Below, piece by piece: positions 36,531-58,923 of a DNA stretch of 64,000 nt (within the stretch, counting starts at the first letter, position 1; the number at the start of each line of letters is the position of its first letter). A program made the translations under genes and the position numbers. This DNA is from an uncultured delta proteobacterium (GTDB taxonomy: Bacteria; Desulfobacterota; Desulfobacteria; Desulfobacterales; JAHEIW01): positions 64,001-128,000 of the forward strand of contig CAVPNL010000015.1 in assembly GCA_963706575.1 (NCBI GenBank), given 5' to 3'. A model generated the notes under the pieces. It was not told the origin of the DNA, ran no database searches, and saw only the letters and a list, made by a program, of their open reading frames with translations.

Positions 36531-36557
36531 TGATATAGTGATGTCATCACTATATCA
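36531..36557. promoter_or_regulatory. Perfect 13 bp-arm palindrome, probable operator upstream of the FadR-type regulator
   Basis: TGATATAGTGATG-T-CATCACTATATCA, downstream of TTGACA at 36514. Confidence 0.6.
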
Positions 36558-36602
36558 TTCATAAGCTAAATAGTAACCATAAGACTCACGGAGGGGAGCA
36601 CA

Positions 36603-37307: not shown

Positions 37308-37397
37308 TAGGACTACAAAGAATTCGTATGTGTTTTGGAGGATGTTACTTAAAATATAATAATGTAGCCCTAATAAATTAAAAGAAAGGAGATTGCA

Positions 37398-40745: not shown

Positions 40746-40835
40746 CAAGGCGATGTGTGGATCCCGCTAAACGGGAGAATAATTGCCGTGATCTACCATC
40801 TTTGAGATGGGTCTAATAAAAATGGGAAGTTTGAG

Positions 40836-41084
40836 ATGATCTCGATAACGGTTAAAATCCACCACGGCTTCAAAAAATTATTGCCGGCCGGTATGAAGAC
40901 GGGCGACCCTTTTGATATTTCCCTTGAGGACAATACGGCCGTCGGGGATTTGCTGCGGGACAAAATCAAACTTCCAGTGGATATGCCAAAATTAATTTTA
41001 ATAAATGGCCTGCACAGCAAAGAAAAGCAAGCTCTGAAAGATGGAGATAAAGTCAGTTTATTCATGCCGATGGCGGGGGGCTGA
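40836..41084 (+). CDS. MoaD/ThiS family sulfur carrier
   Basis: 82 aa; LING...LKDGD.V; C-terminal GG. Confidence 0.9.
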   Translation: MISITVKIHHGFKKLLPAGMKTGDPFDISLEDNTAVGDLLRDKIKLPVDMPKLILINGLHSKEKQALKDGDKVSLFMPMAGG

Positions 41085-41187
41085 GTGCAGATTTGTTCTC
41101 GGAACAACACCAGTCAGCTGTAGGCACGAATCGTAATAATCTCAACCTCGTATTAATTTTCATGCATATTTTAGAGTTAATTTTAGA

Positions 41188-41449
41188 TAGAAGTGGTTTC
41201 AAAACCTCAGATCAGGTTTCCCGCTTTAACGCGGGATTGCACATCTTTTTAAGCAAATTAAGGTGTGCATCAAGGCAAGGCGTCACGCGAATTGAAAGTC
41301 GTGTGTCCGAGCGTACACGTTAGTACGTGAGTATTTTAATTCGTGGGACAACGCAGCCATTGGACCTTTTGAGCCCCTTAACTAATCTTTCAATTAGATG
41401 CGAAATCCCGCTTCATTAAGCGGGGAGATGGGGTTTTGAAGCCGCTTCT
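41188..41449. mobile_element. MITE family A copy 4 (inverted, divergent)
   Basis: TAGAAGTGGTTTCAAAACCTCAGATCAGG ... GATGGGGTTTTGAAGCCGCTTCT. Confidence 0.75.
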
Positions 41450-41468
41450 TAAAGAAAGGAGTGTAACT

Positions 41469-41948
41469 ATGTCCAAGGCCCTTATCGTCAATCTGGATAA
41501 ATGCACGGGCTGCAGATATTGCGAATTGGCCTGCTCGTTCGCACATCACGGGGAATACAATCCCGCCAAATCCAATATTCAGGTCAGTGTTTTTACCGAA
41601 GATGCCTTCTATGTCCCCATGGTCTGTACCCAGTGCGACCGACCCTTCTGTGGTGAAGTTTGTCCAACCGGAGCCATCTCTGCCGATGAAGTCAACGGCG
41701 CTTATGTTGTCCTGGTGGATCCGGAAAAGTGTGTCGGGTGCAAGATGTGCACCATGGCCTGTCCGTTTGGCGCGATTACCTACCAGAGTTCGGGGAAGGT
41801 ACAAAAATGTGATTTGTGCGGCGGCAAACCCGAATGTGTGGCGTTTTGCGTCCCCAATGCGCTGGAATTTAAGGACCCGGAATTAACAAATGTCCGTAAA
41901 TCCAGGGCATACGCCAAAAAAATCTACCATCAGAAGGAGGAAGACTAA
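41469..41948 (+). CDS. 4x[4Fe-4S] subunit (AorA-like)
   Basis: CTGCRYCELAC, CTQC....CGEVCP, CVGCKMCTMACPFG and KCDLC. Confidence 0.92.
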   Translation: MSKALIVNLDKCTGCRYCELACSFAHHGEYNPAKSNIQVSVFTEDAFYVPMVCTQCDRPFCGEVCPTGAISADEVNGAYVVLVDPEKCVGCKMCTMACPFGAITYQSSGKVQKCDLCGGKPECVAFCVPNALEFKDPELTNVRKSRAYAKKIYHQKEED

Positions 41949-43789
41949 TGAATGCATGGGTGGGTAAGATTTTAAGAGTCAATTTAACGAAGGGGGCTAC
42001 ATCGGTTGAGGAACTAAACGAGGAATTTGCCCGTGATTATATCGGCGGACGGGGCTTGGGTGTCAAATACCTTTACGATGAGATCGATCCCAAAGTCGAT
42101 CCGTTGGATCCCGGTAATAAGCTCATCATGGTGACCGGCCCAATGACCGGCACGGGTGCCCTGGCGGGTGGCCGCTATACCGCTGTCACGAAATCCCCTT
42201 TAACCGGAGCGATAGCCAATTCGAATTCAGGAGGATATTTTGGTGCTGAATTGAAATATGCGGGTTACGACATGATCATATTGGAGGGCAAGGCCAAAAC
42301 GCCGGTTTATCTGTGGATCGAAAATGACAGCATCGAAATTCGCAAGGCCAAGCATCTCTGGGGCATGGAAACGCAGCAGACAACCGAAACAATTCTATCC
42401 GAAACGGATGTGGAAGCCAAAGTGGCCTGTATCGGACCGGCGGGTGAAAATCTGGTTAAATTTGCATGCATTATGAACGATAACGGCAGGGCCGCCGGAC
42501 GATCGGGTGTCGGAGCTGTGATGGGATCCAAGAATCTCAAAGCCGTGGCGGTCAGAGGGACCCAGGGCGTTACGGTGGCCGACCCTGAAGGTTTCAGAGC
42601 CGCCGTATTGGATGCCATCAAAGAGTTTCATGATCCGTATATGTCAGAAGTTCTGGCACAGTACGGCACTTCGGATGTGGTCGAGTTTTCAAACGAGGTT
42701 GGTCTGCTTCCCACCCGCAATTATCAGACCGGCGTATTTGAGGGGGCATCGAAGATCGGCGGTACGGTGATTGCGAAATACAATCTCAGAGGTGCCGCCA
42801 AAACCAAGGCCTGCTTCGGGTGCCCCCTGGCCTGCGGCCGGGTGACCCGTGTCGCGGATGGAGAATTTAAAGGCGCGGGCGAAGGGCCGGAATATGAAAC
42901 ATTGGGCGCCTTCGGCTCTGCCTGCGGGGTCGACAACCCCGAAGCCGTCATCAAAGCCAATTATATTTGCAACCGCATGGGCATGGATACAATTTCGACC
43001 GGTGTTACGATTGCCTGCGCTATGGAACTTTTTGAAAAGGGTTATTTACCTGAGAAAAAGGTGGGGCGCAAACTGGCTTTCGGTGATGGCCAGGCGGTGG
43101 TTGAATTAGTCGAAAAGGCCGCCCGGCGGGAGGGTTTTGGCAATGAGATCGCCGAAGGATCCTATCGGCTGGCAACAAAGTATGGCCATCCCGAGTTATC
43201 CATGTCCGCCAAGAAGCTGGAATTTCCCAGTTATGACCCCAGAGGCGGGCAGGGTTTTGCCCTGGCATATGCGACCTCAAACCGGGGCGGGTGTCACATC
43301 CGCAACGAAGTTCATTGTGTCGAATTTTTTGGCATCTCGCTGATGGGTATTGTCAAAACAGGTGATAATTTAGATCGCTTTAGCACCAAAGGCAAACCGG
43401 CGGTTGCCAAAAAGATTCAGGATTTTTATACGATGATCGACTCATCCGGAATCTGCAATTTTATCATCATTGGTTCACCGGATGCCAATGTCTTTATCAA
43501 TCTCATGGAAAAAGGGACAGGCTTAGATTTCGGCGGATTGAACGGTTTTCTGAAAACGGGCGAACGGATCTATAATATCGAAAGGCTTTTTAATCTCAAG
43601 GCCGGCCTGACGGCTAAAGATGACACCTTACCGAAGCGTATGTTAACAGAACCGATGCCCGAAGGTCCCGGCAAAGGCGAGGTGGTTCATTTAAGTGAGA
43701 TGCTGCCGGAGTATTACAAGCTTCGGGGGTGGACCGTAAAGGGGGTCCCCTCTGCAAAGAAGCTGGCGGAACTCGGAATCGCTACTTAA
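41948..43789 (+). CDS. aor: Tungsten aldehyde:ferredoxin oxidoreductase, canonical (AorB-like)
   Basis: KSPLTG, AAGRSGVG, CFGCPLAC, EGPEYET, GMDTIS, YDPRG and TSNRGGCH. Confidence 0.93.
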   Translation: MNAWVGKILRVNLTKGATSVEELNEEFARDYIGGRGLGVKYLYDEIDPKVDPLDPGNKLIMVTGPMTGTGALAGGRYTAVTKSPLTGAIANSNSGGYFGAELKYAGYDMIILEGKAKTPVYLWIENDSIEIRKAKHLWGMETQQTTETILSETDVEAKVACIGPAGENLVKFACIMNDNGRAAGRSGVGAVMGSKNLKAVAVRGTQGVTVADPEGFRAAVLDAIKEFHDPYMSEVLAQYGTSDVVEFSNEVGLLPTRNYQTGVFEGASKIGGTVIAKYNLRGAAKTKACFGCPLACGRVTRVADGEFKGAGEGPEYETLGAFGSACGVDNPEAVIKANYICNRMGMDTISTGVTIACAMELFEKGYLPEKKVGRKLAFGDGQAVVELVEKAARREGFGNEIAEGSYRLATKYGHPELSMSAKKLEFPSYDPRGGQGFALAYATSNRGGCHIRNEVHCVEFFGISLMGIVKTGDNLDRFSTKGKPAVAKKIQDFYTMIDSSGICNFIIIGSPDANVFINLMEKGTGLDFGGLNGFLKTGERIYNIERLFNLKAGLTAKDDTLPKRMLTEPMPEGPGKGEVVHLSEMLPEYYKLRGWTVKGVPSAKKLAELGIAT

Positions 43790-44041: not shown

Positions 44042-45280
44042 ATGAAAACTAAACGTTTTTTTATAATTGCTGGTTTAATGGTTTCAATTTTATTCAGCCT
44101 CCAGGCAATGGCGGCGGAACCGATTAAAGTGGGCGCACCCAATCCGCTTACTGGGGCCTACGCTTCTGACGGCAATGTGATGTTGAACGCGACGGAAATG
44201 GCCGTGGCCGATATTAATGCCAAGGGCGGGCTATTGGGGCGAAAACTCGAAGTTGTCTCTTTTGATGTCGAAGATATGCTGCCTGAAAAACTGATTTCGG
44301 CTGCAGAAGTCCTGGTCGTAAAGGAAAAAGTTGATATGGTCGTCACCGCCTGCAATGCCATGGGTCCGGACGTACAGGCTTTTGGCAAGTACGATGTCCC
44401 TTACATCAACAATAATGCCTCCACTGTTGCCACGGGAATGGTGAAAGATGATCCCGCTACCTATTTTAATGTCTTCCAGGCCGGTGATAACGAGCCGGCT
44501 TATGTTTCAAAAACCATCGAAACATTCATGGGCTTTGGTTACAAACTGCCCAACAAGAAGATGGCCGTGGTTTACAGTGAATACGATTGGGATAAAAAGA
44601 TCGCAGGGGCCTTAAAAGAACAGGCCAAGCAATACGGTCTCGATCTGGTCATATATGAACAGACGCCCGCCGCCACCAATGCCTGGGGCCCCATCCTGAC
44701 AAAAATTCGGGCCCATGACCCCGCTCTGGTATTTTTGAGCATCTACGCCCCTGAAAGCATTGCCGCTTTTGCAGATCAATACCTGCAAAACCCGACGAAT
44801 TCTCTGGTGGACCTGGGCTATGCCGTCTCCATCCCCTCATTTATGGAGATTGCCAGCAAATACGCCGATGGGTTTACCGGCTATGCGGCCCTGGCAATTC
44901 CACCCGAAATGACGGCAGAAGGTCAGGCCCTGGAAGCCAGATACAAAAAAATGTTTAAAACCGATTCCATGCCATTCAGCGTTGTACCCTGTGTATATGA
45001 CGGCGTAATGGCCTGGGCGGCAGCGGTTGAAAAGGTCGGTGATGTAAAAGATTACAAAGCCGTATCGGTCACCATGAAGACCAATCGCTATAAAGGCATC
45101 GGCGGGGTATACGACTTTAATAATCCGCGCCAGGCTGCCAGAGCTGGGGACGATCTGTTACCGGTCAATCTTTTTCAAGCCCAAAACGGCAAACTCGTGC
45201 TGCGCAACCTGGGTAGTAAGACAATATCGCCATATCAGCTGCCGCCTTGGTTAAAAGAACCGTGGCCAAAGGCTCAGTAA
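44042..45280 (+). CDS. ABC substrate-binding protein (LivJ/PBP1 type)
   Basis: Signal peptide; PLTGAYA.DG and DINAKGGLLGR. Confidence 0.9.
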   Translation: MKTKRFFIIAGLMVSILFSLQAMAAEPIKVGAPNPLTGAYASDGNVMLNATEMAVADINAKGGLLGRKLEVVSFDVEDMLPEKLISAAEVLVVKEKVDMVVTACNAMGPDVQAFGKYDVPYINNNASTVATGMVKDDPATYFNVFQAGDNEPAYVSKTIETFMGFGYKLPNKKMAVVYSEYDWDKKIAGALKEQAKQYGLDLVIYEQTPAATNAWGPILTKIRAHDPALVFLSIYAPESIAAFADQYLQNPTNSLVDLGYAVSIPSFMEIASKYADGFTGYAALAIPPEMTAEGQALEARYKKMFKTDSMPFSVVPCVYDGVMAWAAAVEKVGDVKDYKAVSVTMKTNRYKGIGGVYDFNNPRQAARAGDDLLPVNLFQAQNGKLVLRNLGSKTISPYQLPPWLKEPWPKAQ

Positions 45281-46044
45281 TGGCAAGCAGCGCGAATTTT
45301 AATCCCAAAGATGGACAGATGGGGGCGCAAGCCCCCATCCTTCAAGTCCGGAATCTCTCCAAGGCCTTTGGGGCCATGATGGCCGTCAACAATTTAAGCT
45401 TTGAGATTCCCGCCGGCGAAGTATTTGGTATTGCCGGACCCAATGGCGCCGGAAAAACGACGGTCTTCAACCTGATCACCGGGTTTTTACAGGGGACCGG
45501 CGAAGTGCGCTTCGAAGATAAAAATGTGACGAATCTCAAACCGTATCAGATTTGTCACCGGGGAATCGCACGGACGCTTCAAATTCCGCAGGTCTTCACA
45601 ACCCTTGATGTGTTTAACAATGTCAGATTTGGCGCCCATTTCGGCAACAAACGGCTAACGGATGGGAATGAAGCGGAAATTATCCACCGGGCCTTAGATT
45701 TCGTTGGATTGCAGGATGACAAAACAGCAATCGCCGAGAATATGGACCTGTTTCATAAGAAGCTGATTATGATCGCAGCGGCGCTTGCGACCCAGCCACG
45801 CTTATTGTTACTCGATGAGCCCATCGGCGGTCTGAGCCCGACGGAGATCGATCCGCTCATGGAACTCATCCGCAAGATCAACCAGGAATTGAACATCACC
45901 GTCATTATTATCGAGCATTTAATGAAGGTGCTTAAAAAGCTGTCGCATCGCCTGATGATCCTGCACTACGGGGAAGAGATTCGAACCGGACCCCCGGCGG
46001 AAGTCATGGAAGATGAAAAAGTAAAAGAAGTTTATCTGGGTTAG
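45280..46044 (+). CDS. ABC ATPase (LivG-like)
   Basis: GPNGAGKTT, LLDEP, IEH and EVYLG. Confidence 0.92.
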   Translation: MASSANFNPKDGQMGAQAPILQVRNLSKAFGAMMAVNNLSFEIPAGEVFGIAGPNGAGKTTVFNLITGFLQGTGEVRFEDKNVTNLKPYQICHRGIARTLQIPQVFTTLDVFNNVRFGAHFGNKRLTDGNEAEIIHRALDFVGLQDDKTAIAENMDLFHKKLIMIAAALATQPRLLLLDEPIGGLSPTEIDPLMELIRKINQELNITVIIIEHLMKVLKKLSHRLMILHYGEEIRTGPPAEVMEDEKVKEVYLG

Positions 46045-46054
46045 GAGAACCGTT

Positions 46055-46759
46055 TTGCTCGAATTAAAGCACATCAATACCTATTACGGCCAATTTCATG
46101 CCATCAGAGACGTTTCCTTTAAAATTAATCAAGGCGATTTATTCCTGGTTGTGGGGCCCAACGGGCATGGAAAGAGCACTTTGCTGAAAACGATATGCGG
46201 CTTGCTGCGGACGGCTTCAGGTCAAATCGTTTTTAACTCGACCGAAATTACCCGATTGGCGACGGATCAAATCGTGGCGATGGGCCTGGTTTATGTGGCC
46301 GAGGAACGCCATCTCTTTCCCCAGATGACCGTTCTCGACAACTTGAAGCTCGGTGCCTATAACATGCAGGCCCGGGCCAAAGAACGCGAAACCCTCGAAT
46401 ACGTCTTTCATTTATTTCCGCGTTTAAGCGAATTTCAAAATAGATATGCAGCAACCCTGAGTGGTGGTGAAGCAAGGATGTTAACCCTGGGCCGGGGCAT
46501 CATGTCCTGTGCCAAGCTGTTGGCGATCGATGAGCCGTCCTTTGGGTTAGCCCCCATTCTCAGAAATGACGTATTTGATAAGATCAATGAGATCAATTCC
46601 AATGGGTTGACCGTTCTTCTGGTAGAGCAAAACGTTAATCAGGTAGTGGACTTCGCTGACAGAATCTGCCTGATCGAAGACGGATGTATCGTCTTCGACG
46701 GCCCCAGAGAAGAAGCCCTGCTGAACGAACATGTTAAAAATGTATTTCTAGGTGGATAA
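46055..46759 (+). CDS. ABC ATPase (LivF-like)
   Basis: GPNGHGKST, LSGGE and DEPSFGLAP. Confidence 0.92.
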   Translation: MLELKHINTYYGQFHAIRDVSFKINQGDLFLVVGPNGHGKSTLLKTICGLLRTASGQIVFNSTEITRLATDQIVAMGLVYVAEERHLFPQMTVLDNLKLGAYNMQARAKERETLEYVFHLFPRLSEFQNRYAATLSGGEARMLTLGRGIMSCAKLLAIDEPSFGLAPILRNDVFDKINEINSNGLTVLLVEQNVNQVVDFADRICLIEDGCIVFDGPREEALLNEHVKNVFLGG

Positions 46760-46764
46760 TATAA

Positions 46765-47646
46765 ATGAATATTTGGGTTCAACAGATCATTCAAGTGATT
46801 ATTAGTGGGATTGTGACGGCTTCGGCATATGCAATTATGGGTATCGGATTATCGGTCATCTATGGCATATCACGCGTATTTAATTTTGCATACGGGTCGT
46901 TTTTTACCTGGGGGGCCTATTTTGCCTGGTTTTTATTCGCCACATTTTCGTGGATGAATTATCCGCTGGTTTTTTTGATTGTGGTGCCCGGTATGTTTTT
47001 TCTAGGAATGGGTACCGAACGCGTCGTGGTCCGGTCCCTGCGCTGGCGCAAAAACTGGCAGGTGACTACCATGATGGTTACGCTGGGGCTGGCTTTTTTT
47101 ATGGACAATCTGGCGATGGTCGTTTTCGGCGGATTTGCCAAACCGCTGCCCCCTCTTTTTCGCGGCGCCATAAACCCTTTTGGTTTCACCTTAAGCGTGC
47201 AGGATTTGGCCATGCTGATTATCGCCATATTGGTGATCGTCGTCTTTGGCTTATTTCTGTCCAGAACCCGGGTGGGAAGATGCATGCAAGCCATCTCTCA
47301 GGATATGACCGGAGCCGAAATCGTCGGAATTCCGATAAAAAAAATATTCAGCTACACCTTCGGATTATCAACCGCGCTGGTGGGAACCGGTGGCATTCTG
47401 CTGGCACCGAGGTATTTCATTACCCCCCACGGCGGCTGGGCACCTTTTTTTCGGGTTTTTGTTATCGTTGCTTTCGGCGGCCTGGGTAGCATTCGGGGAA
47501 CCCTCTATGCGGCATTTATCCTGGCTATTTTTGAGTCCTTTATTTCCTGGGGGCTGGGCGCCACCTGGGTAATGCCTTTCTGGTTTTTGGTCTTCTTGGG
47601 GGTGCTGGCATTTCGACCTTCAGGATTAATGGGAACGTGGGGTTAA
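46765..47646 (+). CDS. ABC permease (LivH-like)
   Basis: GLSVIYG...FNFAYG, GGLGS and RPSGL. Confidence 0.9.
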   Translation: MNIWVQQIIQVIISGIVTASAYAIMGIGLSVIYGISRVFNFAYGSFFTWGAYFAWFLFATFSWMNYPLVFLIVVPGMFFLGMGTERVVVRSLRWRKNWQVTTMMVTLGLAFFMDNLAMVVFGGFAKPLPPLFRGAINPFGFTLSVQDLAMLIIAILVIVVFGLFLSRTRVGRCMQAISQDMTGAEIVGIPIKKIFSYTFGLSTALVGTGGILLAPRYFITPHGGWAPFFRVFVIVAFGGLGSIRGTLYAAFILAIFESFISWGLGATWVMPFWFLVFLGVLAFRPSGLMGTWG

Positions 47647-47651
47647 GGGGA

Positions 47652-48665
47652 ATGATGAAAATACAAATGCGACAAGAACTGGTCGTCTTTTTGGCCATGT
47701 ACCTCATTTTGCTTTTTTTGCCTGTGTTTCTATACAAGGATGCATATGTCATTGGGATTCTCATCACCTGTATGATCTGGGGGGCGATGGCATCGGTTTG
47801 GAATTTTACCATGGGGTATGCCGGTATCTTCACCTTCGGTCAGTTTGGTTTTTTCGTTGTGGCCGCGTATACCTCCGGCATGGTGACCAAATACCTGGGA
47901 ATATCTCCCTGGCTGGGCATTTTGATAGGTGGATTGATGGCCGCGCTGGTGGGTGTCCTCATCGGCCTGCCGTGTATGAAATTAAAAGGAGCCTACATCG
48001 CTTTAATTACCTTTGCACTGCACCTGGTTGTGGCGCCGATGATAAAAGTGGCCGACCCGCTGGGCACCGGCGGCAGCACCGGCCTGATGTCCATTCCAAG
48101 TTTAAATCTGGGCGCATATACGTTTTCGCGTACCGATCTTATTCCGTGGTATTATACCGCTCTGGTAATATCCTTTTTGGTCCTTTTTGTTGTTTATAAA
48201 ATCATTTTTTCCTCGGTTGGTTTAGGATTTATCGGTCTGCGTGATTCCGAGGACTTTGCCAAAACCCTGGGGATAAATGAATATAAGTACAAACTGCTGG
48301 TATTTGGCCTTTCGGCTTTTTTAACCGGAATCATGGGAGGGTTTTATGCGCATTATGCCGGCATCATATCTCCCCGATTGTTGGGTCTTGATATCTTTCT
48401 TTTGGTGATGCTCATGCTGATTATCGGGGGCATGGGGATATTTCCAGGCGCCTTTTTAGGCGGGTTTATTATTCTTTTCTTAAATGAGTTTTTACGTCCG
48501 TTGGCGGCCTATCGTTTCCTGATTTTTGGTGCGATTGTGATTGTGGCAATTAAACTGATGCCGGAAGGGATTCTGGGCCATCTCAACATTTTCAAGAACC
48601 GAATGGGAAAGCGTTTGCTGGGCAGACCTGCTGAAGCGGAATCGACCAGAGGCCAAAATGTTTAA
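47652..48665 (+). CDS. ABC permease (LivM-like)
   Basis: WNFTMGYAG, LKGAY.AL.T, GG.G and PEGI. Confidence 0.9.
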   Translation: MMKIQMRQELVVFLAMYLILLFLPVFLYKDAYVIGILITCMIWGAMASVWNFTMGYAGIFTFGQFGFFVVAAYTSGMVTKYLGISPWLGILIGGLMAALVGVLIGLPCMKLKGAYIALITFALHLVVAPMIKVADPLGTGGSTGLMSIPSLNLGAYTFSRTDLIPWYYTALVISFLVLFVVYKIIFSSVGLGFIGLRDSEDFAKTLGINEYKYKLLVFGLSAFLTGIMGGFYAHYAGIISPRLLGLDIFLLVMLMLIIGGMGIFPGAFLGGFIILFLNEFLRPLAAYRFLIFGAIVIVAIKLMPEGILGHLNIFKNRMGKRLLGRPAEAESTRGQNV

Positions 48666-48794
48666 ACGATGGCGCCCTACCCTCCGCCTCTGGTGATGGC
48701 GAACAGGAGTTTAGGACCAGGGTGAATCATGGCGCAAAGAAAAGTTTAAGCAGTATTTCAACCTTTAAAACATTTGCAGAACAGGAGAAAATTT

Positions 48795-50057
48795 ATGAGC
48801 TCTAAAGCAAAGAATGAAATTTTAAGTGAACAGCGAAACCGATTTATATCTGAAGGCGTGGCCAGTGTAACGCCCCTGTATGTCGAATCCGCCAAAGGGG
48901 CGATTATCAAGGATGTCGACGGCAGAGAATACATCGATTTCGCGGGTGGCATTGCGGTCATGAACATCGGGCACAGTCATCCCAAGGTGGTCGCGGCCAT
49001 AAAGGATCAGGCCGAAAAATTCACGCATACCTGCTTTATGGTCAATCCATATGAATCGCCGGTAGCGCTGGCAGAAAAGCTCTGTCTGCTGACGCCGGGC
49101 GATTTTGCCAAAAAGGCGATTTTCCTGAACTGTGGTGCCGAAGCAGTTGAAAATGCGGTTAAGATTGCCCGTTATTATACCAAAAGACCCGCCATTATCG
49201 TTTTTGAAAACGCCTATCACGGCCGCACCCTTCTGACCATGACGATGACGAGCAAAGTCAAGCCCTATAAATTCGGATTTGGCCCCTTTGCACCCGAGGT
49301 GTACCGCATGCCTTTCGGCGATGAAGTGGGACCCGAAAAACTCCATGATTTTTTTGTTAAACATGTCAATCCTGAAGCGGTGGCAGCTGTTGTTGCTGAA
49401 CCGGTTCAGGGTGAAGGGGGCTTCATTGCGCCACCGCCCGGCTATTTTCAGGAGTTAGCCAAGATCTGCAAAGACAATGGCATTCTTTTCGTGGCGGATG
49501 AAATTCAGAGCGGTATGGGGCGTACCGGAAAAATGTGGGCCATTGAGCACTGGGATGTCGAGCCGGACCTGATTACGGTCGCAAAAAGCCTGGCTGCCGG
49601 CATGCCGCTGGCTGCCGTCATCGGCAAACAGGAGATCATGGACGCCGTCCATCCCTGGGGGTTGGGCGGAACTTACGGCGGAAACCCGGTGGCATGTCGT
49701 GCCGCACTGGCGGTGCTGGAAGTTTTCGAGGAAGAAGGCCTGGTTGAAAAGGCAGCGGTGCTGGGGCAAAAACTGAAAGCGCGCTTTGAAAAGTGGCAGG
49801 AGCAATTCGCGATAATCGGAGAAATCAGAGGCCTGGGTGCCATGCTGGGTCTGGAGTTGATCAAGGGCGACAATCAGCAACCCGCCGCGGATGAAGCCAA
49901 ACAACTGGTGAATTTCTGCTATGAAAAAGGGCTGGTGATCCTGGCCTGCGGCAGCTACGGTAACATTATTCGGATTCTGGCACCGTTTGTGATTACGGAT
50001 GAACAATTGGAGCAGGGTCTTGCCATTATGGAGGAAGGGCTTTCGGCCCTCTCGTAA
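48795..50057 (+). CDS. gabT: 4-aminobutyrate/5-aminovalerate aminotransferase-like class-III enzyme
   Basis: DFAGGIAV, GAEAVENAVKIAR, YHGRT, EPVQGEGG, DEIQSG.GRTG, AKS and GGTYGGNP. Confidence 0.88.
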   Translation: MSSKAKNEILSEQRNRFISEGVASVTPLYVESAKGAIIKDVDGREYIDFAGGIAVMNIGHSHPKVVAAIKDQAEKFTHTCFMVNPYESPVALAEKLCLLTPGDFAKKAIFLNCGAEAVENAVKIARYYTKRPAIIVFENAYHGRTLLTMTMTSKVKPYKFGFGPFAPEVYRMPFGDEVGPEKLHDFFVKHVNPEAVAAVVAEPVQGEGGFIAPPPGYFQELAKICKDNGILFVADEIQSGMGRTGKMWAIEHWDVEPDLITVAKSLAAGMPLAAVIGKQEIMDAVHPWGLGGTYGGNPVACRAALAVLEVFEEEGLVEKAAVLGQKLKARFEKWQEQFAIIGEIRGLGAMLGLELIKGDNQQPAADEAKQLVNFCYEKGLVILACGSYGNIIRILAPFVITDEQLEQGLAIMEEGLSALS

Positions 50058-50084: not shown

Positions 50085-50390
50085 TTGGCAAACTTTGCTG
50101 AGATCAAACAGAATCTGGATCCGTCTTTTCATTATATTATTTTCGAAAAGACCGTAAACCCGGCTGACGGACCGGATTTCAGCGAGATCAGCGCTTTTAT
50201 CATGCGCTATCAGAAGGCCGTGATCGAACAGGAGGTGCATCGCGATCCAACCGGAAAGCATCTTTTGCTCGTTGTTAAATTAAACGCGGATGAAGTGGAT
50301 GAGATTTCACAGGAAATCCTAAATCTTACGTTCGCGGAGGATATCACGGTTTATGTTTACGGCCGACGCCCAAGCATTGAAACCGCTTGA
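50085..50390 (+). CDS. Hypothetical protein immediately upstream of mtbB
   Basis: 101 aa ORF filling the gap between gabT and mtbB; AGGAGG upstream; no recognised motif. Confidence 0.6.
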   Translation: MANFAEIKQNLDPSFHYIIFEKTVNPADGPDFSEISAFIMRYQKAVIEQEVHRDPTGKHLLLVVKLNADEVDEISQEILNLTFAEDITVYVYGRRPSIETA

Positions 50391-50429: not shown

Positions 50430-51816
50430 ATGGGAAAAATTTTTACCCGTTACGGTGACGGGACGCCCACTGAAATGAGCGAAAGTGAGCTCAGGGCGGA
50501 TCTGGAGGCCGGCACCGCGGACGCAGCGGATCGCGGCAAAATACCGCCGTTATCCGAAGATGAGCTAAACCATCTATTCGATATTTTTAGCTCCCCCTAT
50601 AAATTTATCAGCGTGGAGCCCGGGCAGGAAATCGTTTTGACCTATGATGGCGCTCACGTGAAAATGCGGCGCCACGGAATCAATGTCGAGCGAATTCAGG
50701 GCCTGCAGATTTATGAAAAGATCATGGGTGCCGACACATTGGAACTCTGTCATGTTGACTATAGTTTCAAACCCATCAAGCCCATGATTACCTTTGAACA
50801 GCCGGTCATGGAACAGGCCCTTTTGGTCACCCATGCACCGATGTTTTACGGCGCCATGCCCAATCTTGGCCTTTACTCCCAGCCGGACGGTCCCTTCCCA
50901 AATCCGTCCGAGCTGATGCCGGCCGGAAAAATCGAAGAGGCCCAGGAGTCCCATGAGAAATCCGTCGAAGCAGCGGTCAAAGATATCGTTTTTATCGGCT
51001 GCTGCATGATTGAATGCGGGGCCGACGGGATTAACATCGACTCGACGGGCGCGGCCGGCGATGCCGATTTTCTGGCGGCGCTGTTGGCCACCCAGCAGCT
51101 TGAAGGAAAAATACCCGGACACCTGCATTGAGATCGGTATGGCCGGTGAATTTATTCTGGGGATGCATGCCGGCTTGGAATTTGAAGGCACCCGGCTGGC
51201 CGGCCTTTACCCCCACGATCAGGTAAAGCTGGTCGAAAAAGCCGGTGGAACGATCTATGGCCCGGTGGTCAACACCAATACCACCCAGTCCACCCCCTGG
51301 AATGTCGCCCGGGTGGTTACGTTCACCAAGGCGGTTGGCGAAGTCGCCAAAATCCCCATTCATGCCAATATGGGCATGGGTGTCGGTGCCGTCCCCACCT
51401 GCGATCATCCCCCCATCGATACCGTCTCCAGGGCTTCCAAGGCCATGGTCGAAATTTGCCGATTGGACGGGTTGTAGGTGGGCGTCGGCGATCCCTTCGC
51501 CATGGCGCTTGCTCACGCACACGCTTCGGGCATGGGCGGAATGCGGACCTCCGGAGATCTGGTCGCCCGCATGCAAATGACCCGCGGCATGAAAATTCAA
51601 GAAGCCAAAGAGTATGTCGCCAATAAACTAAATTTATCGATTCCCGAAATAACCGACCCGGTCATTATGACCGAGGTCAGACAGGACCTGAAGCTGGGTT
51701 GCATGTCGCCCCAGGCCGGTGATGCTCACGGAATCGAGGCCAAGTTCCGAATTGCCGAGGTTCTGGGTATCGAGATCAATTGTGTCAACAAATTTAAAAA
51801 CAAAGTTGCGTTTTAA
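50430..51816 (+). CDS. mtbB: Pyrrolysine-containing dimethylamine:corrinoid methyltransferase family protein (in-frame TAG at 51475; +1 frameshift near 51100, likely an error)
   Basis: Three track ORFs join into ~461 aa with MtbB motifs DYSFKP.KP, YGAMPNLGLY..PDGP, GAAGD.D, GMAGE, MGMGVG and RASKAMVE..DGL-TAG-VGVGDP, matching methanogen DGI-O-IGVGDP. Confidence 0.93.
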
Positions 51817-51848: not shown

Positions 51849-52503
51849 ATGTTAGATGAAAAGATCATTGAAGAAGCAATGCAACTGATTATTCAACAGA
51901 ACAAGGAAGCGGCAGCCAAACTGGCCCAAAAGGTCATATCTGAAGGCGTCTCTCCCATTGAATTATTGAACGAAGGATTTATTCCCGGGATCAATAAGGT
52001 TGGCGATTTGTTCGGGCGCGGCGAGCTGTTTCTGCCGGAATTGATTAAAGCGGCCGATACCATGAAAACGGTTACCGATATCGTCAACGAAGCGATCGCA
52101 GATGGCCCGGACAAACCGGAGGCCCAGGCGAAGGTTGTTATCGCCACGGTCAAAGGTGATGTTCACGATATCGGCAAAGCGATCGTGGTCTCATTGATGC
52201 GAGCCAACGGATTTACCGTTTATGATCTGGGGCGCGATGTCGAAACGGATAAGATCATCGAAGAAGCGCAAAAAGGTGGATGCAGACATCATCGGCACCA
52301 GCGCCCTGCTGACGACCACCATGCCCAAGCAGAAAGAGCTTGAAGAAGCGCTCAAAAGCGCCGGCTTGAGGGATCGTTTTAAAACGGTGGTCGGCGGTGC
52401 CCCGGTGACCCCTCGCTGGGCGGCCCGGATCGGTGCCGATGCCTATGCCGAAGATGCTCAGGACGGTGTTTTGAAAGTAAAAGAGCTCCTCGCACAGTCG
52501 TAG
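51849..52503 (+). CDS. mtbC: Cognate corrinoid protein (MtbC-like; +1 frameshift in the A-run near 52272)
   Basis: FLPEL, GDVHDIGK B12 motif and DLGRDV; next frame SALLTTTM, VGGAPV and IGADAYAE. Confidence 0.88.
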
Positions 52504-52545: not shown

Positions 52546-52582
52546 CATTGTCGGCGTGCCCATTACTGATGCGCCGACAATG
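52546..52582. other. Intergenic stem-loop between mtbC and aor
   Basis: CATTGTCGGCG ... CGCCGACAATG, 11 bp perfect stem with no U-tract. Confidence 0.5.
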
Positions 52583-52594
52583 ACAGGGGGAAAC

Positions 52595-54361
52595 ATGCAC
52601 GGATTTTACAACCGAATATTAAAAATCGATTTAAGTCAGAAGAATTTTTCAATCGAAGCCCTCGGCGATGAAATCCCGCAAAGCCTGCTGGGCGGCAAAG
52701 GATTGTGTTCGCATCTTTTATTCAATCTCAATCCTCCGGGAGTCGATCCATTATCCCCGGAAAACTGTTTGATATTTGCCACCGGACCCAGCGCGGGAAG
52801 CACCATCTGGGGGTCGTGCCGCTACGGGGTGTTTACCAAGTCGCCCCAGACCGGGTTTTATTCGGAATCTTATTCCGGTGGAACGGTACCAGAGGCCATC
52901 GACAGCACCGGCTTTGATGCCATTGTCATTCAGGGAAAATGTGCCGACCGCACCGTCCTGGCGATTCACCCGGATGGTGTTGATTTCCATGATGCCGGCG
53001 ATATCTGGGGAATGGAAACATACGCCGCCGAAGATGCCGTAATGGAACGTTTCGGCAAATCCGATGATCGTTATCGGCGAAAAGGCGCGGTGGTGATCGG
53101 ACCCGCCGGTGAAAAGCTGGTCTGCTTTGCAGTGATTGAAAACAACTATTGGCGTTCGGCGGGAAGAACCGGCGTCGGCACGGTCATGGGCGCCAAACAG
53201 ATCAAAGGCATTTTGTTTCAGGGCGATCAGAAACGCTCGCTTTATGATGAAAAAGCGGTGCGCGAATTTTCAAAGAATCTGTCGGCAGAAGCCAAAGACA
53301 GCCCGGCCACCAATGCCTATAAATCGCTGGGAACGCCTATGATGGTTAAACTGATAAACACCGCCGGTGCGTTTCCGACGCGTTACTGGTCGGAAGGCGT
53401 ATATCAAGATTGGGAAAAGATCAGCGCCGATGCCTTGAATGAAAGATGCGACGTCAAGCCGCATGCCTGTCTCAAGTGTTTTATGGCCTGCGGGCGCATG
53501 AGCACCATCAAGGAGGGTCGTCATAGCGGTCTTAAGATCGAGGGCCCGGAGTATGAAACCATTTATGCCTTCGGGGGACTGTGCCTGATCGACAGCATCG
53601 AGGAAATCGCATATCTCAATGATGTTTGCGATCGCTTAGGCGTCGATACGATCACGGCCGGCAATTTATGTGCCTTTACGATTGAAGCCGCCCGGCAGGG
53701 CCGCATCGATTATAAAATCGATTACGGAGAGGTGGACTCCATTGCGGAATTACTTCATAAAATCGCCTTTAGAGAAGACATTGGTGATATACTGGCCGGC
53801 GGAATCAAGCAGGCGGCGAAACAATGGCAACTGGAAGACATAGCGGTTCACGTCAAGGGTCTGGAGCCGGCGGGATATGATCCGCGCGCGCTCAAAGGAA
53901 TGGGTCTCAGCTACGCCACCTCGGATCGCGGCGCGTGTCATTTAAGAGCGACGTTTTATAAACCGGAAATCAGTGGTATGATCCCGCCGGAGCAAATTGA
54001 AGGCAAAGCCGAGCTTTTTTTGGACTTTGAGGATCGCTTAACCCTTTTCGATACGATGATTCTTTGCCGGTTTTATCGTGACTTTTACGACTGGGATCAG
54101 CTGGCAAAGATGATTTACGCGGTGACCGGCATCGATGAAGGCAAAGAAGGGCTGCAGCAAAGGGCCCGACAAATTGCCGACCTCATCCGGCGTTTCAACT
54201 TGCGGGAAGGATTAAAGCCCGAAGATGACCGGCTGCCGAAGGTCTTTCACCGCAAACTGGAAAATTCCGGGCAGGTCATTACGGAAGAAGAGCTCGAAAC
54301 CATGCTGCAGGATTATTACCGGCTGCATGGCTGGGATCAAAACGGTATCCCTGCCAGCTGA
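52595..54361 (+). CDS. aor: Tungsten aldehyde:ferredoxin oxidoreductase family protein
   Basis: KSPQTG, IGPAGE, AGRTGVG, CLKCFMAC, EGPEYET, YDPR and TSDRGACHLR. Confidence 0.92.
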   Translation: MHGFYNRILKIDLSQKNFSIEALGDEIPQSLLGGKGLCSHLLFNLNPPGVDPLSPENCLIFATGPSAGSTIWGSCRYGVFTKSPQTGFYSESYSGGTVPEAIDSTGFDAIVIQGKCADRTVLAIHPDGVDFHDAGDIWGMETYAAEDAVMERFGKSDDRYRRKGAVVIGPAGEKLVCFAVIENNYWRSAGRTGVGTVMGAKQIKGILFQGDQKRSLYDEKAVREFSKNLSAEAKDSPATNAYKSLGTPMMVKLINTAGAFPTRYWSEGVYQDWEKISADALNERCDVKPHACLKCFMACGRMSTIKEGRHSGLKIEGPEYETIYAFGGLCLIDSIEEIAYLNDVCDRLGVDTITAGNLCAFTIEAARQGRIDYKIDYGEVDSIAELLHKIAFREDIGDILAGGIKQAAKQWQLEDIAVHVKGLEPAGYDPRALKGMGLSYATSDRGACHLRATFYKPEISGMIPPEQIEGKAELFLDFEDRLTLFDTMILCRFYRDFYDWDQLAKMIYAVTGIDEGKEGLQQRARQIADLIRRFNLREGLKPEDDRLPKVFHRKLENSGQVITEEELETMLQDYYRLHGWDQNGIPAS

Positions 54362-54431: not shown

Positions 54432-54505
54432 GGGGGGTGGATCGCAATGTGATCGTGTGGACTCTAAATCCACATAGGCGGGTGCAACTCCCGTACTCCC
54501 CGCCA
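54432..54505 (+). tRNA. pylT: tRNA-Pyl (anticodon CUA)
   Basis: Acceptor GGGGGGT/ACTCCCC, G discriminator and encoded CCA; D stem GATC/GATC; 6 bp anticodon stem TGTGGA/TCCACA with loop CT-CTA-AA; 3 nt variable loop; T arm GCGGG-TGCAACT-CCCGT; directly upstream of pylSc. Confidence 0.96.
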
Positions 54506-54557
54506 TTCAATTTTTATCAGGGTATAAATCCCTTATTCGGATCAAAAGAGGGTCTTG

Positions 54558-55400
54558 ATGGTTACATGGACAGAAACGCAACTGAGGCGCTTGCAGGAAC
54601 TGGATGTATCCGAGTCCGATTTGAATCAACACTTCGAAAATACTGATGACCGGGAAAACGCTTTTCAAGAGATCGAAAAAAAGCAAGCGCAAGAATTGCG
54701 CCAACGGCTGAAAACGTTTCGCGAAGTCGATTTCAGACCCGGACTGTGCAGGCTGGAAGCCAGATTGGCCGACACATTGATCAAACAGGGCTTCGTCCAG
54801 GTCACCACGCCGATCATGATGTCGAAAGGCCTGTTGCAAAAGATGTCTATCGATGCCAAACACCCGCTGAATTCACAGATATACTGGCTTGATAAGAATA
54901 AGTGTTTGCGCCCCATGCTGGCACCCCATCTGTATTATGTTCTGGTAGATTTGCTGCGCCTGTGGGACAAACCGGTCAAAATTTTTGAGGTCGGTCCCTG
55001 TTTTCGCAAGGAATCTCACGGTGCCCAGCATTCCAGTGAATTCACCATGCTCAATTTGGTCGAAATGGGGCTGCCCGCCGATCAACGCAAAGATAGGATA
55101 AAAGAGCTGGGGGCCCTGGTTTCAGAAGCAGCAGGCATTAGCGAATACCACTTTGAGAAGATAACCTCCGAAATTTATGGCGATACTATCGATATTGTGG
55201 CCGGAGAGGATCAGGTAGAGGTCGGTTCGGCTGCCATGGGTCCGCACCCGCTGGATCGTCCCTGGAAAATAACGGATACCTGGGTCGGAATCGGCTTTGG
55301 GCTTGAAAGGCTGCTGATGGTTGCACAAAACAGCAACAGTTTAGCAAAAATGGGCCGTAGCCTCACCTATTTAGACGGCATCCGGTTAAATATTCAATGA
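54558..55400 (+). CDS. pylSc: Pyrrolysyl-tRNA synthetase catalytic subunit
   Basis: TW..TQ..RL.EL, GFVQVTTP, LRPMLAP, FEVGPCFRKES.G..H..EFTMLNLVE, YGDT.D and GFGLERL. Confidence 0.96.
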   Translation: MVTWTETQLRRLQELDVSESDLNQHFENTDDRENAFQEIEKKQAQELRQRLKTFREVDFRPGLCRLEARLADTLIKQGFVQVTTPIMMSKGLLQKMSIDAKHPLNSQIYWLDKNKCLRPMLAPHLYYVLVDLLRLWDKPVKIFEVGPCFRKESHGAQHSSEFTMLNLVEMGLPADQRKDRIKELGALVSEAAGISEYHFEKITSEIYGDTIDIVAGEDQVEVGSAAMGPHPLDRPWKITDTWVGIGFGLERLLMVAQNSNSLAKMGRSLTYLDGIRLNIQ

Positions 55401-56524
55401 GACCTAAAGTGAACGTTAAGAACAACGGGCAACATTTTGAAGCCCTCCTCGTTAAATTAAAAGCGGAAGAAAATCTTTCAAAAGCCGAGATCAGGTTTCT
55501 GCTCAACCTTGACGATGGCGATAAGATCGATGCGCTTTTTCAAGAAGCCCGTGACAGACGCCAAAAGTATTTCGGCAACAAAGTCTTCATGTATGGATTC
55601 ATTTACGCCAGCACCTATTGCCGCAATGATTGCAGCTTTTGTCTTTTTCGCCGGTCGAATTCGCAAACGAAACGATACCGGAAATCAAAACAGGAAATTG
55701 TTGCAGCCGCCTTACGCCTGGCGGATTCCGGCGTTCATTTGATCGACCTGACCATGGGTGAAGATCCCGCCATTTTAAACGGCGGTGGGGCCGGTTTTGA
55801 ACAACTGGTTGATCTGGTCAGCACATTGCAAAAAGAGACGGGTCTTCCGATAATGGTTTCTCCTGGGGTGGTCCCCACACATGCCTTGCAACAATTGGCC
55901 GCAGCAGGTGCGGTCTGGTATGCCTGTTACCAGGAAACCCACAGCAATTCACTGTTTAACAAACTGCGGCCCGGCCAGGACTATCACAACCGCATGCAGA
56001 GCAAAGTTGACGCACACCATCTCGGTTTACTGGTCGAGGAAGGGCTGCTCTGCGGGGTCGGTGAAACCACAGATCATATAGCCCGATCGATCGACGCCAT
56101 GAAAAAATTGAGAGCGGATCAGGTGCGGGTGATGAACTTTGTGCCGCAGCCGGGTACGCCGATGGCAGGACAAGCGCCGCCGGATCCGCTGAGAGAGACA
56201 TTGATTGCTGCCGTCATGCGCCTCGTTTTTCCAGATAAGCTGATTCCGGCTTCATTGGACGTGGAAGGGATTGCCGGGTTAAAGCGCCGTTTGAATTCAG
56301 GTACAAATGTGGTCACATCCATCGTGCCCCCCGGTGAAGGTCTGGTTGGGGTGGCCCAGCATTCGTTGAATATTGAAGAAGGCGGACGTACAGCGGCGTC
56401 TGTGAAAAACGTGCTGAAGCGCCTCGGGCTGGAACCGGCCACCCGCCAAGAATACCAGAACTGGGTCCGTCGCCGCCAACAGGCCATCGCCAACAGCAGA
56501 AACAGCAGGGAGGTCGCGTGTTAG
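55397..56524 (+). CDS. pylB: Methylornithine synthase (radical SAM)
   Basis: FMYGFIY.STYCRNDCSFC, GVHLIDLTMGED, CYQETH, RVMNFVPQ.GTP and IPASLDVEG. Confidence 0.96.
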   Translation: MRPKVNVKNNGQHFEALLVKLKAEENLSKAEIRFLLNLDDGDKIDALFQEARDRRQKYFGNKVFMYGFIYASTYCRNDCSFCLFRRSNSQTKRYRKSKQEIVAAALRLADSGVHLIDLTMGEDPAILNGGGAGFEQLVDLVSTLQKETGLPIMVSPGVVPTHALQQLAAAGAVWYACYQETHSNSLFNKLRPGQDYHNRMQSKVDAHHLGLLVEEGLLCGVGETTDHIARSIDAMKKLRADQVRVMNFVPQPGTPMAGQAPPDPLRETLIAAVMRLVFPDKLIPASLDVEGIAGLKRRLNSGTNVVTSIVPPGEGLVGVAQHSLNIEEGGRTAASVKNVLKRLGLEPATRQEYQNWVRRRQQAIANSRNSREVAC

Positions 56525-57675
56525 TCGCCGTTGCCGGCGGAAATCTTCAGGGCGTAGAAACGGCGTACCTATCGCAAAAGGCGGGCTGGGACGTTCTCGT
56601 AATGGATCGCAAACCGATGGTACCGGCAACGGGGCTATGCGATACTTTTGTTCAGCTGGATATGACCTCAGAAAAAGATTTAGCGCAGGCCCTAAGTGGT
56701 GTTGATTTGGTCATTCCCGCGCTGGAGAACGATGCTGCCCTGGCCTGTTTAGGCCGGGTGACCCGCAACAATGGGATTCCATTTGCTTTTGATCCTGCCG
56801 CTTTTGCCATATCCTCCTCCAAAATACAATCTGAGCAGCTCTTTAAGCAAACCGGTGTCCCGACTCCCGCCCGTTGGCCAAAATGCAAATTCCCGGTCGT
56901 CGCCAAACCTGACCGGGGAAGCGGCAGCCAGGGCGTAACGGTATTTAATAATATTACCGATCTGCAGAACACCCTAAAACCACCAAACCCGCAATGGCTG
57001 ATACAGGAATTTATCCACGGGCCATCGTATTCTTTAGAAGTCATCGGATCGCCGGGTCACTATACCGTGCCCCAGGTCACCGATTTAGCAATCGATGCGC
57101 AATACGACTGCAAGCGTGTGACCGCACCATCAAGCCTGGCGGGTGAGCTGATCTTAAAATTTGAAGCGCTCTCGCTGGCGCTGGCGGATGCCTTAAACCT
57201 GAACGGCATAATGGATGTGGAAGTCATTTTGTCTGAAGATGAACTAAAGGTGATTGAAATTGATGCGCGCTTACCCAGCCAAACACCGACAACGGTTTAC
57301 TGGTCGACGGGTTTGAATATGGTCCAGTTATTGGGAGACTTTTTTTTAAACCGACAGACTCGCATTCAGCCGAATTCGACTAATGAATATGGCGTGATCT
57401 ATGAACACGTGAGGGTGGCATCAAATCATCTTGAAATTGCCGGCGAACACATCATGTCCGGAACGGATGCCCTTCACGTATACCCGGATTTTTTTGGCGC
57501 AGACGAGGCCATAACGAATTATGCTACGGGCCGCGACGATTGGGTCGCCACATTGATTGTTGTTGAAAAAAATGTGGAAGCCGCCTGGGACAAACGCAAT
57601 CAAATCATTGCGGATATTAAAAAAAGGTTTAAGCTGGAAATTTATCTGGATTCAGTCACGCAAGAAAAAACTTAG
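56518..57675 (+). CDS. pylC: 3-methylornithine--L-lysine ligase (ATP-grasp)
   Basis: GG.LQG.E..YL..KAG, GPSYSLEV, YDCKRV, GIMDVE, EIDARLPSQTP and GEHIM. Confidence 0.95.
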   Translation: MLVAVAGGNLQGVETAYLSQKAGWDVLVMDRKPMVPATGLCDTFVQLDMTSEKDLAQALSGVDLVIPALENDAALACLGRVTRNNGIPFAFDPAAFAISSSKIQSEQLFKQTGVPTPARWPKCKFPVVAKPDRGSGSQGVTVFNNITDLQNTLKPPNPQWLIQEFIHGPSYSLEVIGSPGHYTVPQVTDLAIDAQYDCKRVTAPSSLAGELILKFEALSLALADALNLNGIMDVEVILSEDELKVIEIDARLPSQTPTTVYWSTGLNMVQLLGDFFLNRQTRIQPNSTNEYGVIYEHVRVASNHLEIAGEHIMSGTDALHVYPDFFGADEAITNYATGRDDWVATLIVVEKNVEAAWDKRNQIIADIKKRFKLEIYLDSVTQEKT

Positions 57676-57685
57676 GAGACCACCT

Positions 57686-58537
57686 GTGACCCGACTGATA
57701 AGCGCTGACATCAGCGATATCGCCGCCAATTTGCAAAATTATGACAGGGAATTGGTGGCCAGAACGGGTTATTCCCTGAGCGGTATTGCCTGTCGTGCCG
57801 CTGAAATCGATGAAGCGCAGATCAAGAATTTACTGCCCGAAATTCGGGTGGGAGTCATACCGATCTCCAGCGGCGAAGGGATCATCGGCGGTTTCGGCGA
57901 TGCCGTTTTGAACATTCTTTTCCACATGGGTGCTAACGCCTTTGTAACCCGGACGACGGATGTCGCCGGAATTGTCGAATCCTATGAGAAAAAAGCAGAT
58001 ATGATAATGCTGGCCGATGATGAGCGCTTTGTGGCATTGCATATTCGAAGTCGCTCAATCGCTGACAATGCGGTTTGCACCGGCAACGCCTTTGCAACCG
58101 GATTGCGATTGATGGCCGGCAGCCTGAAAGGGCAAAAGGTGCTGGTCATCGGCTGTGGTCGGGTGGGGCGCAGCGTAACGGAGGCTTTGATCCTTATGGG
58201 TGCCCGGGTTTCAGTTTACGATGTTAAGATTGAACCGTTAAAGGAATGGGTCAAAACGGTAGATCAAACAGCTGATTCGAAGATTCAGATAGTCCAAAAA
58301 TTGGACTCCGCCTTGCAGCGTCACCAATTTATCATCGATGCTTCGCCGGCCCGCAACATTATCCATGCGCATCATATTACACCGGATACATATGTTAGCG
58401 CGCCCGGGGTTCCGTGCGGATTGGACGCCGAAGCAAAAGAGAGATTATCCAGTCGATTTTTGCACGATCCGCTTCAGCTAGGCGTCGCAACGATGCTGGT
58501 CAGTGCGGCCAAAGGCCACTGCGAGCGGCAACAATAA
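57686..58537 (+). CDS. pylD: 3-methylornithyl-N6-L-lysine dehydrogenase
   Basis: GTG start (TRL..D); G.GIIGGF, DVAG, ADD.RF, GCGRVG, APGVP.G and HDPLQLGVA.M. Confidence 0.93.
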   Translation: MTRLISADISDIAANLQNYDRELVARTGYSLSGIACRAAEIDEAQIKNLLPEIRVGVIPISSGEGIIGGFGDAVLNILFHMGANAFVTRTTDVAGIVESYEKKADMIMLADDERFVALHIRSRSIADNAVCTGNAFATGLRLMAGSLKGQKVLVIGCGRVGRSVTEALILMGARVSVYDVKIEPLKEWVKTVDQTADSKIQIVQKLDSALQRHQFIIDASPARNIIHAHHITPDTYVSAPGVPCGLDAEAKERLSSRFLHDPLQLGVATMLVSAAKGHCERQQ

Positions 58538-58560
58538 CAAAGAGATTCTCATCTATTTTT

Positions 58561-58923
58561 ATGCAAAATTCAGGTAAAAAAGCCGCGAAACGATTCTATC
58601 GCAAGCGCGTCGATCTTTTTCGGCTCATTGATAAAATAAAATTGTGGCCGTCGCGCAAAGGTATTTTGCATGGCATCCGGACCATTCAAAAGATAGGGGA
58701 CCAGGCCCAGATTACCACGCATTGTAACAAAACATTTCTGGCAAACGATTCCCGCAACAGCCGGGCCGCTCGCTGGTTAAGAAATAAATGGTTTAAGGAT
58801 GTCTGCCCGATCTGCCGGATTCCGGATTGGAAGCTGGAAAAATATTCATCAACCCAGTTCAAGCGCCATTACGGATCGGCTCTGCTGTCGGAGGATGAGT
58901 TGGATAAAAAAAACGGCGATTAA
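58561..58923 (+). CDS. pylSn: Pyrrolysyl-tRNA synthetase N-terminal (tRNA-binding) subunit
   Basis: KIKLWPSRKGILHGI, THC, SRNSRAARWLRNKW and C..CRIP.WKL.KY. Confidence 0.95.
   Translation: MQNSGKKAAKRFYRKRVDLFRLIDKIKLWPSRKGILHGIRTIQKIGDQAQITTHCNKTFLANDSRNSRAARWLRNKWFKDVCPICRIPDWKLEKYSSTQFKRHYGSALLSEDELDKKNGD

Follow-up and report, generated by a model that had tools for sequence, protein, structure and literature searches.

A short-loop, gabT-linked MtbB subgroup in an uncultured deltaproteobacterium and its relatives, with a substrate hypothesis

The window analysed here, a 64,000-nt stretch of DNA from the genome (G000) of an uncultured deltaproteobacterium, carries a gene for an MtbB-family corrinoid methyltransferase belonging to a short-loop, gabT-linked subgroup. 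Sequence and gene context tentatively point away from dimethylamine and towards an N-methyl-omega-amino acid, for example 4-(methylamino)butyrate, as its substrate, a reading to which we assign a probability of about 0.4. The subgroup appears new and offers a testable substrate hypothesis; the recoding of the amber codon was already known, and the +1 frameshift that splits the gene is likely an artefact. It is the substrate that would matter, amber recoding and split annotation being ordinary.

The initial annotation had read three ORFs as one mtbB gene, with one extra base near 51100 and an in-frame amber at the pyrrolysine (Pyl) site, about residue 349, and had proposed alignment to MtbB profiles. 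This alignment bore out the reconstruction. The ORFs (50430-51131, 51010-51477 and 51478-51816) match PF09505 colinearly at profile positions 5-234, 228-353 and 355-463, all three above the Pfam cut-off, and the span of 1387 nt equals 461 codons, a stop and one base; they are colinear pieces of one MtbB-family gene. With the TAG read through, pieces 2 and 3 cover TIGR02368 from 230 to 465 without net gap, which puts the amber, located in the string TTG-TAG-GTG-GGC-GTC-GGC-GAT-CCC at 51472-51495, on column 356. Pieces scored alone against this model reached 191.8 and 300.6, and L021, an intact relative sharing 93% identity with the first piece, reached 499.5 bits at a cut-off of 369.1. In the four closest relatives, 90-93% identical, the frame runs uninterrupted through 461 residues and has its amber likewise at 349. 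TAG occupies the aligned site in all 53 full-length homologues, a set whose construction permitted one TAG read-through and left its position free, and the amber position is therefore not due to chance. A search with the first 347 residues of a relative yielded 2711 homologues among 8000 scored candidates, and the closest named records were Desulfobacterales and unclassified Deltaproteobacteria MAGs; when the C-terminal piece served as query for annotated MtbB of full length, three matches resulted, none useful. An mtbB match was present in 16 of the 41 genomes searched. One full-length homologue of 463 aa (P0136), a single-member cluster 38% identical to L021, carries Trp at the Pyl column and no amber, and is possibly a Pyl-free MtbB.

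Read-through of the TAG by tRNA-Pyl is inferred from the complete pylTScBCDSn set 2.6 kb downstream of mtbB (Table 1). An Rfam PYLIS_2 match begins at the amber, and as many of the base pairs of the model are non-standard here, its score may rest on coding conservation. TAG also terminates 513 of 2260 long ORFs of G000, so that this codon would be read in two ways.

On one strand the window presents, in this order, an aldehyde:ferredoxin oxidoreductase (AOR) module, a Liv-type importer, gabT, a 101-aa ORF, mtbB, mtbC, a further AOR gene and the pyl genes (Table 1). The GabT protein scores below the cut-offs of several narrower GabT models. Within the importer (44042..48665), the binding protein was assigned from profiles and the other subunits from translations; the locus is kept in L023 and L061 and absent in L022. 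Homologues of the 101-aa ORF with 28-33% identity lie near mtbC or pyl genes in four other loci (L024, L047, L048 and L131). Farther upstream, the window holds an amine-catabolism island (20290-38492) with a third AOR, a second Liv-type importer, two Pyl-free MttB homologues (27639-29078 and 34581-36065), another class III aminotransferase and an opine-dehydrogenase-like gene.

Table 1. Features of the window around the mtbB gene (positions are those of the 64,000-nt stretch).
Feature	Position	Strand	Evidence or remark
Second AOR with Fe-S subunit, MoaD-like protein and flavin oxidoreductase	39438..43789	+	Kept in L022, L023, L061
Liv-type ABC importer (binding protein, two ATPases, two permeases), directly upstream of gabT	44042..48665	+	
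gabT-type 4-aminobutyrate--2-oxoglutarate transaminase	48774..50057	+	TIGR00700 570.7 bits, cut-off 506.65
101-aa ORF without Pfam or NCBIfam match, kept in close relatives	50085..50390	+	
MtbB-family (PF09505/TIGR02368) corrinoid methyltransferase gene	50430..51816	+	461 codons without the extra base
Short loop plus helix that follow barrel strand 1 (residues 72-86; K78, R80, R81)	50643..50687	+	
Single extra base (frame break)	51099..51099	+	Absent in 7/7 aligned relatives and in the 13 public contigs listed over the site
In-frame TAG, codon 349, pyrrolysine site of the family	51475..51477	+	TIGR02368 column 356
Rfam PYLIS_2 (RF02509) match, begins at amber	51475..51574	+	65.2 bits, gathering score 36
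Cognate corrinoid protein (MtbC-like), B12-binding domains	51849..52503	+	
Aldehyde:ferredoxin oxidoreductase (AOR family)	52556..54361	+	PF01314 and PF02730
tRNA-Pyl (pylT), anticodon CTA	54432..54505	+	
pylSc, pylB, pylC, pylD, pylSn, all intact	54555..58923	+	TIGR02367, TIGR03910, TIGR03909, TIGR03911, TIGR03912 above cut-off

Comparison with related sequences indicates that the extra base in mtbB is very probably an assembly error. Position 51099 is the sole gap column in a DNA alignment with seven relatives. The public contigs that were compared represent related populations at no less than 88% identity, not the source reads of G000. In four DNA runs, all seven contigs listed over 51099 lack the extra base, and all eight listed over the break in mtbC lack the extra base of that gene, a count covering about 21% of run X1. 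Six contigs from three of four RNA-library runs also lack the base at 51099, the fourth run not covering the site; one of these runs holds contigs of either form at 51099/51100. RNA-library contigs of the four runs cover much of the cassette, at small shares of the stretch per run and with no silent control, a coverage that does not establish transcription. The mtbC-like gene has one extra base near 52268-52270, absent in relatives and public contigs, which is likely an assembly error as well.

Alignment of 302 genes (339 kb) of G000 against 879 kb of the relative G007 revealed 18 frame breaks in 14 genes. Fourteen of the 18 were +1 in G000, that of mtbB included, or on average about one in every 24 kb, and they affected aroA, aroE, PBP1A and one of three gatA copies. 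Apparent nonsense changes numbered 15 in 110,498 codons; 12 were discarded because they lay near gaps or in poorly aligned stretches, leaving at most three clean candidates. Pairs of overlapping contigs within the bin, whose contamination is 6.4%, show up to about 75 single-base indels between them. Three near-identical gatA copies on contigs C6, C19 and C20, one of them broken, imply that the bin holds duplicated strain haplotypes; as two intact copies are present, we dropped the argument that an essential gene is broken. We infer that the overall pattern fits consensus error better than decay. Homopolymer slippage was rejected as the source, only one of 13 events lying within a run of four or more, and the reverse comparison (G000 ORFs against G007) was abandoned as a control because it mostly recovered the same events via shadow ORFs and is thus not independent.

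The breaks could instead be real, making mtbB, mtbC and the Pyl-type mttB recent pseudogenes in this strain. Three methyltransferase-system genes of the island are each broken, more than expected from about one +1 break per 24 kb. Moreover, a both-alleles signature of mixed-strain consensus, in which two synonymous alleles stand side by side, fits CTG/TTG in mtbB and AAA/AAG in mtbC but was not significant over the survey (seen in 9 of the 13 single +1 events, where the null was 0.43-0.47) and was set aside. Nevertheless, decay appears improbable: apart from a single +1 base, each of the three genes matches intact relatives at 87-92% DNA identity, the breaks are almost all +1 across the genome and also hit aroA, aroE, PBP1A and one gatA copy, and every pyl gene as well as a second mtbB is intact. 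A programmed frameshift joining the first two ORFs, whose frames overlap at 51010-51131, is far less credible still, given that the extra base occurs in no relative and no public contig listed over the site and that unrelated genes show the same type of break. Elsewhere in the window (31515-32817), an M20 peptidase/deacylase gene lies in two overlapping ORFs, probably through another frame break.

The segment YDGAHVKMRRHGINV (residues 72-86) had been described in the initial annotation as shorter than the matching methanogen region. It is six residues shorter than in methanogen and long-loop MtbB: its numbering differs from that of TIGR02368 by +1 over residues 6-73 and by +7 from residue 88 onwards, placing the missing residues within 74-87, and a six-column gap appears against P0129, an MtbB whose cluster members are named Methanomethylophilaceae. 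This sequence, which stands for the methanogens here in place of a Methanosarcina protein, is about 45% identical to the window's enzyme and 46% identical to the intact relative. The window's MtbB lacks the long Gly/acid-rich segment after strand 1 and has K-x-R-R instead. Among the 53 full-length bacterial homologues, 36 have K-[IM]-R-R, 14 other short forms and three the long form; since the short loop is common to 50, it is not peculiar to the window's gene and marks a large bacterial subgroup. K78, R80 and R81 are found in 36/36 subgroup members and 0/3 long-loop ones, a circular figure because the subgroup was defined by the motif. The division into long and short loops is a distinction made in this analysis, not a published definition; a quick tree, used for describing groups only, separates the two with an SH-aLRT of 100.

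An AlphaFold2 model of L021, built from a 53-row alignment (pLDDT 90.6, pTM 0.91), is a TIM barrel with strand 1 at residues 68-72 and Pyl in strand 8 at 347-350. Its best structural alignment is to the homocysteine-binding TIM-barrel domain of MetH (Z 19.5, rmsd 3.2, 252 residues), with BHMT and MtaA/UROD also among the closest folds; MttB and MtmB, which may still be related, are absent from the 50 fold matches listed. A PDB sequence search with the first mtbB piece found no solved MtbB (best E 0.43). As strand 1, after whose C-terminal end the segment comes, is adjacent to strand 8 in the barrel, the short loop is predicted to border the substrate pocket on the face carrying Pyl. That the loop alters this pocket, as initially suspected, would be a guess that fits the predicted fold and the gene neighbourhood.

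Gene neighbourhoods were compared for 63 mtbB genes with flanking DNA from 49 fetched loci chosen against repeats; a gabT was scored as linked at 55% identity or more, at most 400 bp upstream and on the same strand. By this measure gabT lies directly upstream of 17 of the 38 K-[IM]-R-R genes, including 4/4 relatives of the window's own subtype, and even within 6.5 kb it accompanies 0/15 other short-loop genes and 0/10 long-loop genes, three of the latter having short flanks. Because the window's own protein served to fetch the loci, which include kin, these counts are not independent. An AOR of the window's type follows within 1.3 kb in 9/38 subgroup genes. The 21 subgroup genes that have no gabT directly upstream include six with less than 1 kb of upstream DNA. 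Five of the ten long-loop genes stand directly beside a Pyl-mttB, compared with 3/38 K-[IM]-R-R genes.

The gabT-mtbB pairing is not simply one inherited block, as linked gabTs are spread over several branches and mixed with unlinked ones (five changes, at least two forced by strong branches, in a fast tree without bootstrap). Nor does gabT depend on mtbB: it occurs in 24 of 41 genomes, 11 of which lack an mtbB match. Other cassettes add a pterin-binding methyltransferase, a Pyl-mttB or a Pyl-free mttB (L051, L112, L128 and L129), or a BCCT betaine-type transporter (L029 and L031). L031 is the cultured strain Desulforhopalus singaporensis DSM 12130; its cassette is intact, and the substrate idea is therefore directly testable. 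Outside the Desulfobacterales, an alphaproteobacterial MAG (Hyphomicrobiales, L027) combines a Pyl-mtbB of the K-I-R-R type with mtbC, gabT and a Liv-type importer in a single stretch. The genome G026 (L113-L115, L133-L139) yields 11 mtbB matches, short-loop and long-loop, whose surroundings vary and include beta-oxidation genes, arginase-family genes and a lysine 2,3-aminomutase-like gene with two ATP-grasp genes.

G000 has a second, intact mtbB with its own amber and another short loop on contig C3 (351712-353073, minus strand; L108:11697-13088), and this copy likely acts on another substrate. It adjoins an M24 peptidase gene, an arylmalonate-decarboxylase-family gene and 2-hydroxyacyl-CoA dehydratase genes. 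On the contig of the window, 54 kb upstream of the window's mtbB, lies an mttB of the Pyl type (C15:58740-60147, minus strand) that has an in-frame TAG and is frame-broken once; in total the genome has ten MttB homologues with no internal stop and this one amber-bearing, broken copy. Its three MtmB homologues (C12:17256, C4:159929 and C13:86217) have no internal stop, leaving no Pyl-MtmB to finish methylamine. The genome further encodes dsrA, one CdhC-domain (acetyl-CoA synthase) gene, three RACo-type activases and three pterin-binding proteins.

In the proposed pathway, tRNA-Pyl would decode the mtbB TAG, and the substrate amine would add to the Pyl imine. For MttB and MtmB, such addition and the passing of the methyl to the corrinoid have been proposed, in the part of that report available to us (PMC9842639). 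A secondary amine R-NH-CH3 would, by analogy, react as dimethylamine does, and the primary amine it would leave is the type of compound that a transaminase requires. K78, R80 and R81 of the basic short loop could, from topology, bind the acid group of the substrate. The methyl group might pass from the adjoining corrinoid protein via a pterin-binding methyltransferase to tetrahydrofolate and into the Wood-Ljungdahl pathway, the genes for which lie elsewhere in the genome. Gene order suggests that GabT would act on the freed amine (GABA or a like compound) and that AOR would oxidise the aldehyde arising from this transamination, and the Pyl-free MttB and Pyl-MttB homologues upstream may supply the substrate from a betaine, e.g. 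gamma-butyrobetaine. In a wider form that we hold with slightly more reserve, bacterial MtbBs would be split between a long-loop enzyme for dimethylamine, like that of methanogens, and a widespread family with the short loop that employs pyrrolysine on larger N-methyl amino acids. In sediment sulfate reducers the gabT-mtbB-mtbC-AOR cassette would then complete an anaerobic route on which gamma-butyrobetaine, or a homologue of it, is demethylated step by step to yield GABA and succinate.

The gene might instead encode an ordinary dimethylamine:corrinoid methyltransferase, with gabT and AOR as mere island neighbours or serving methylamine disposal by transamination to formaldehyde and then formate, a route that the absence of a Pyl-MtmB also fits. 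An intact relative passes the TIGR02368 equivalog cut-off, close homologues are named dimethylamine methyltransferases in databases, a Pyl-mttB lies on the same contig, and such genes are treated as dimethylamine enzymes in the accessible parts of PMC1976440 and PMC8318568. We nevertheless consider this somewhat less likely than an N-methyl-omega-amino acid substrate, because identity to methanogen MtbB is low and the loop differs, a separate long-loop group of the same lineage keeps the canonical mttB-mtbB order, and by its score the transaminase counts as a 4-aminobutyrate equivalog; names in databases denote the family and do not reflect assays.

The enzyme could also demethylate sarcosine or another N-methyl amino acid of small size, gabT then serving a different branch. 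A basic loop suits any carboxylate, a dimethylglycine-dehydrogenase-like gene stands directly upstream of one subgroup member (L053), and M24 peptidase (creatinase-family) genes occur near other short-loop copies (L108 and L133), the second copy of G000 included. Together with the three subgroup genes directly behind a Pyl-mttB (L047, L048 and L114), the L053 neighbour points to sarcosine or dimethylamine. These neighbours are, however, single cases or belong to other loop subtypes, and gabT precedes the gene in all relatives of the window's own subtype, making a sarcosine-type substrate rather improbable here.

If short-loop MtbBs do act on N-methyl amino acids, pyrrolysine chemistry would extend beyond methylamines, and there would be a reason why these bacteria keep several mtbB copies and no Pyl-MtmB. 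Inventories scoring every mtbB as sediment dimethylamine use would then overcount competition with methanogens. The enzyme would also offer a sink for partly demethylated betaine products, the gut fate of which was called unknown by the authors of PMC8604678. In the portion of that study available, MtyB of Eubacterium limosum, a Pyl-free MttB, converts gamma-butyrobetaine to 4-dimethylaminobutyrate and no further, and 4-methylaminobutyrate is named as the next product. A literature search mostly outside subscription journals, supplements excluded, found no published link between MtbB and gabT or between methylaminobutyrate and pyrrolysine. The word 'aminotransferase' occurs 0 times in the accessible text of PMC8318568, whose supplements list neighbouring genes and may bear on the MtbB-gabT link.

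Pyl-MtbB has been in print for the Desulfobacterales since 2007, and with such proteins so long known in the lineage, the amber in the window's mtbB is ordinary. According to the available parts of the reports, the deltaproteobacterial Olavius delta-1 symbiont has six MtbB, two MttB and no MtmB together with pyl genes (PMC1976440), and a Pyl-containing dimethylamine methyltransferase occurs in most Deltaproteobacteria studied (PMC8318568). The systems of this symbiont and of marine Desulfobacterales resemble the one described here in lineage, in the split PylSn/PylSc and in having several mtbB copies; they differ in that, in the same parts of these reports, methylamine substrates were assumed and loop types not separated. 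MtyB/MtqC/MtqA, as far as described in the sections at hand (PMC8604678), shares the corrinoid-dependent N-demethylation of an omega-amino acid derivative and the delivery of the methyl group to tetrahydrofolate, whereas the window's enzyme would act two steps later, on a secondary amine. Methanogen MtbB/MtbC (PF09505, TIGR02368) is alike in the whole-length colinear match, the amber at column 356, the adjoining corrinoid gene and the nearby pyl genes. In contrast to it, the window's MtbB is six residues shorter and basic after strand 1, and its gene is flanked by gabT and AOR in a host with dsrA and an acetyl-CoA synthase gene. The same net conversion, 4-(methylamino)butyrate to GABA, would be achieved in the nicotine pathway of Arthrobacter by gamma-N-methylaminobutyrate oxidase, an aerobic flavoenzyme of an unrelated protein family that works without corrinoid or pyrrolysine.
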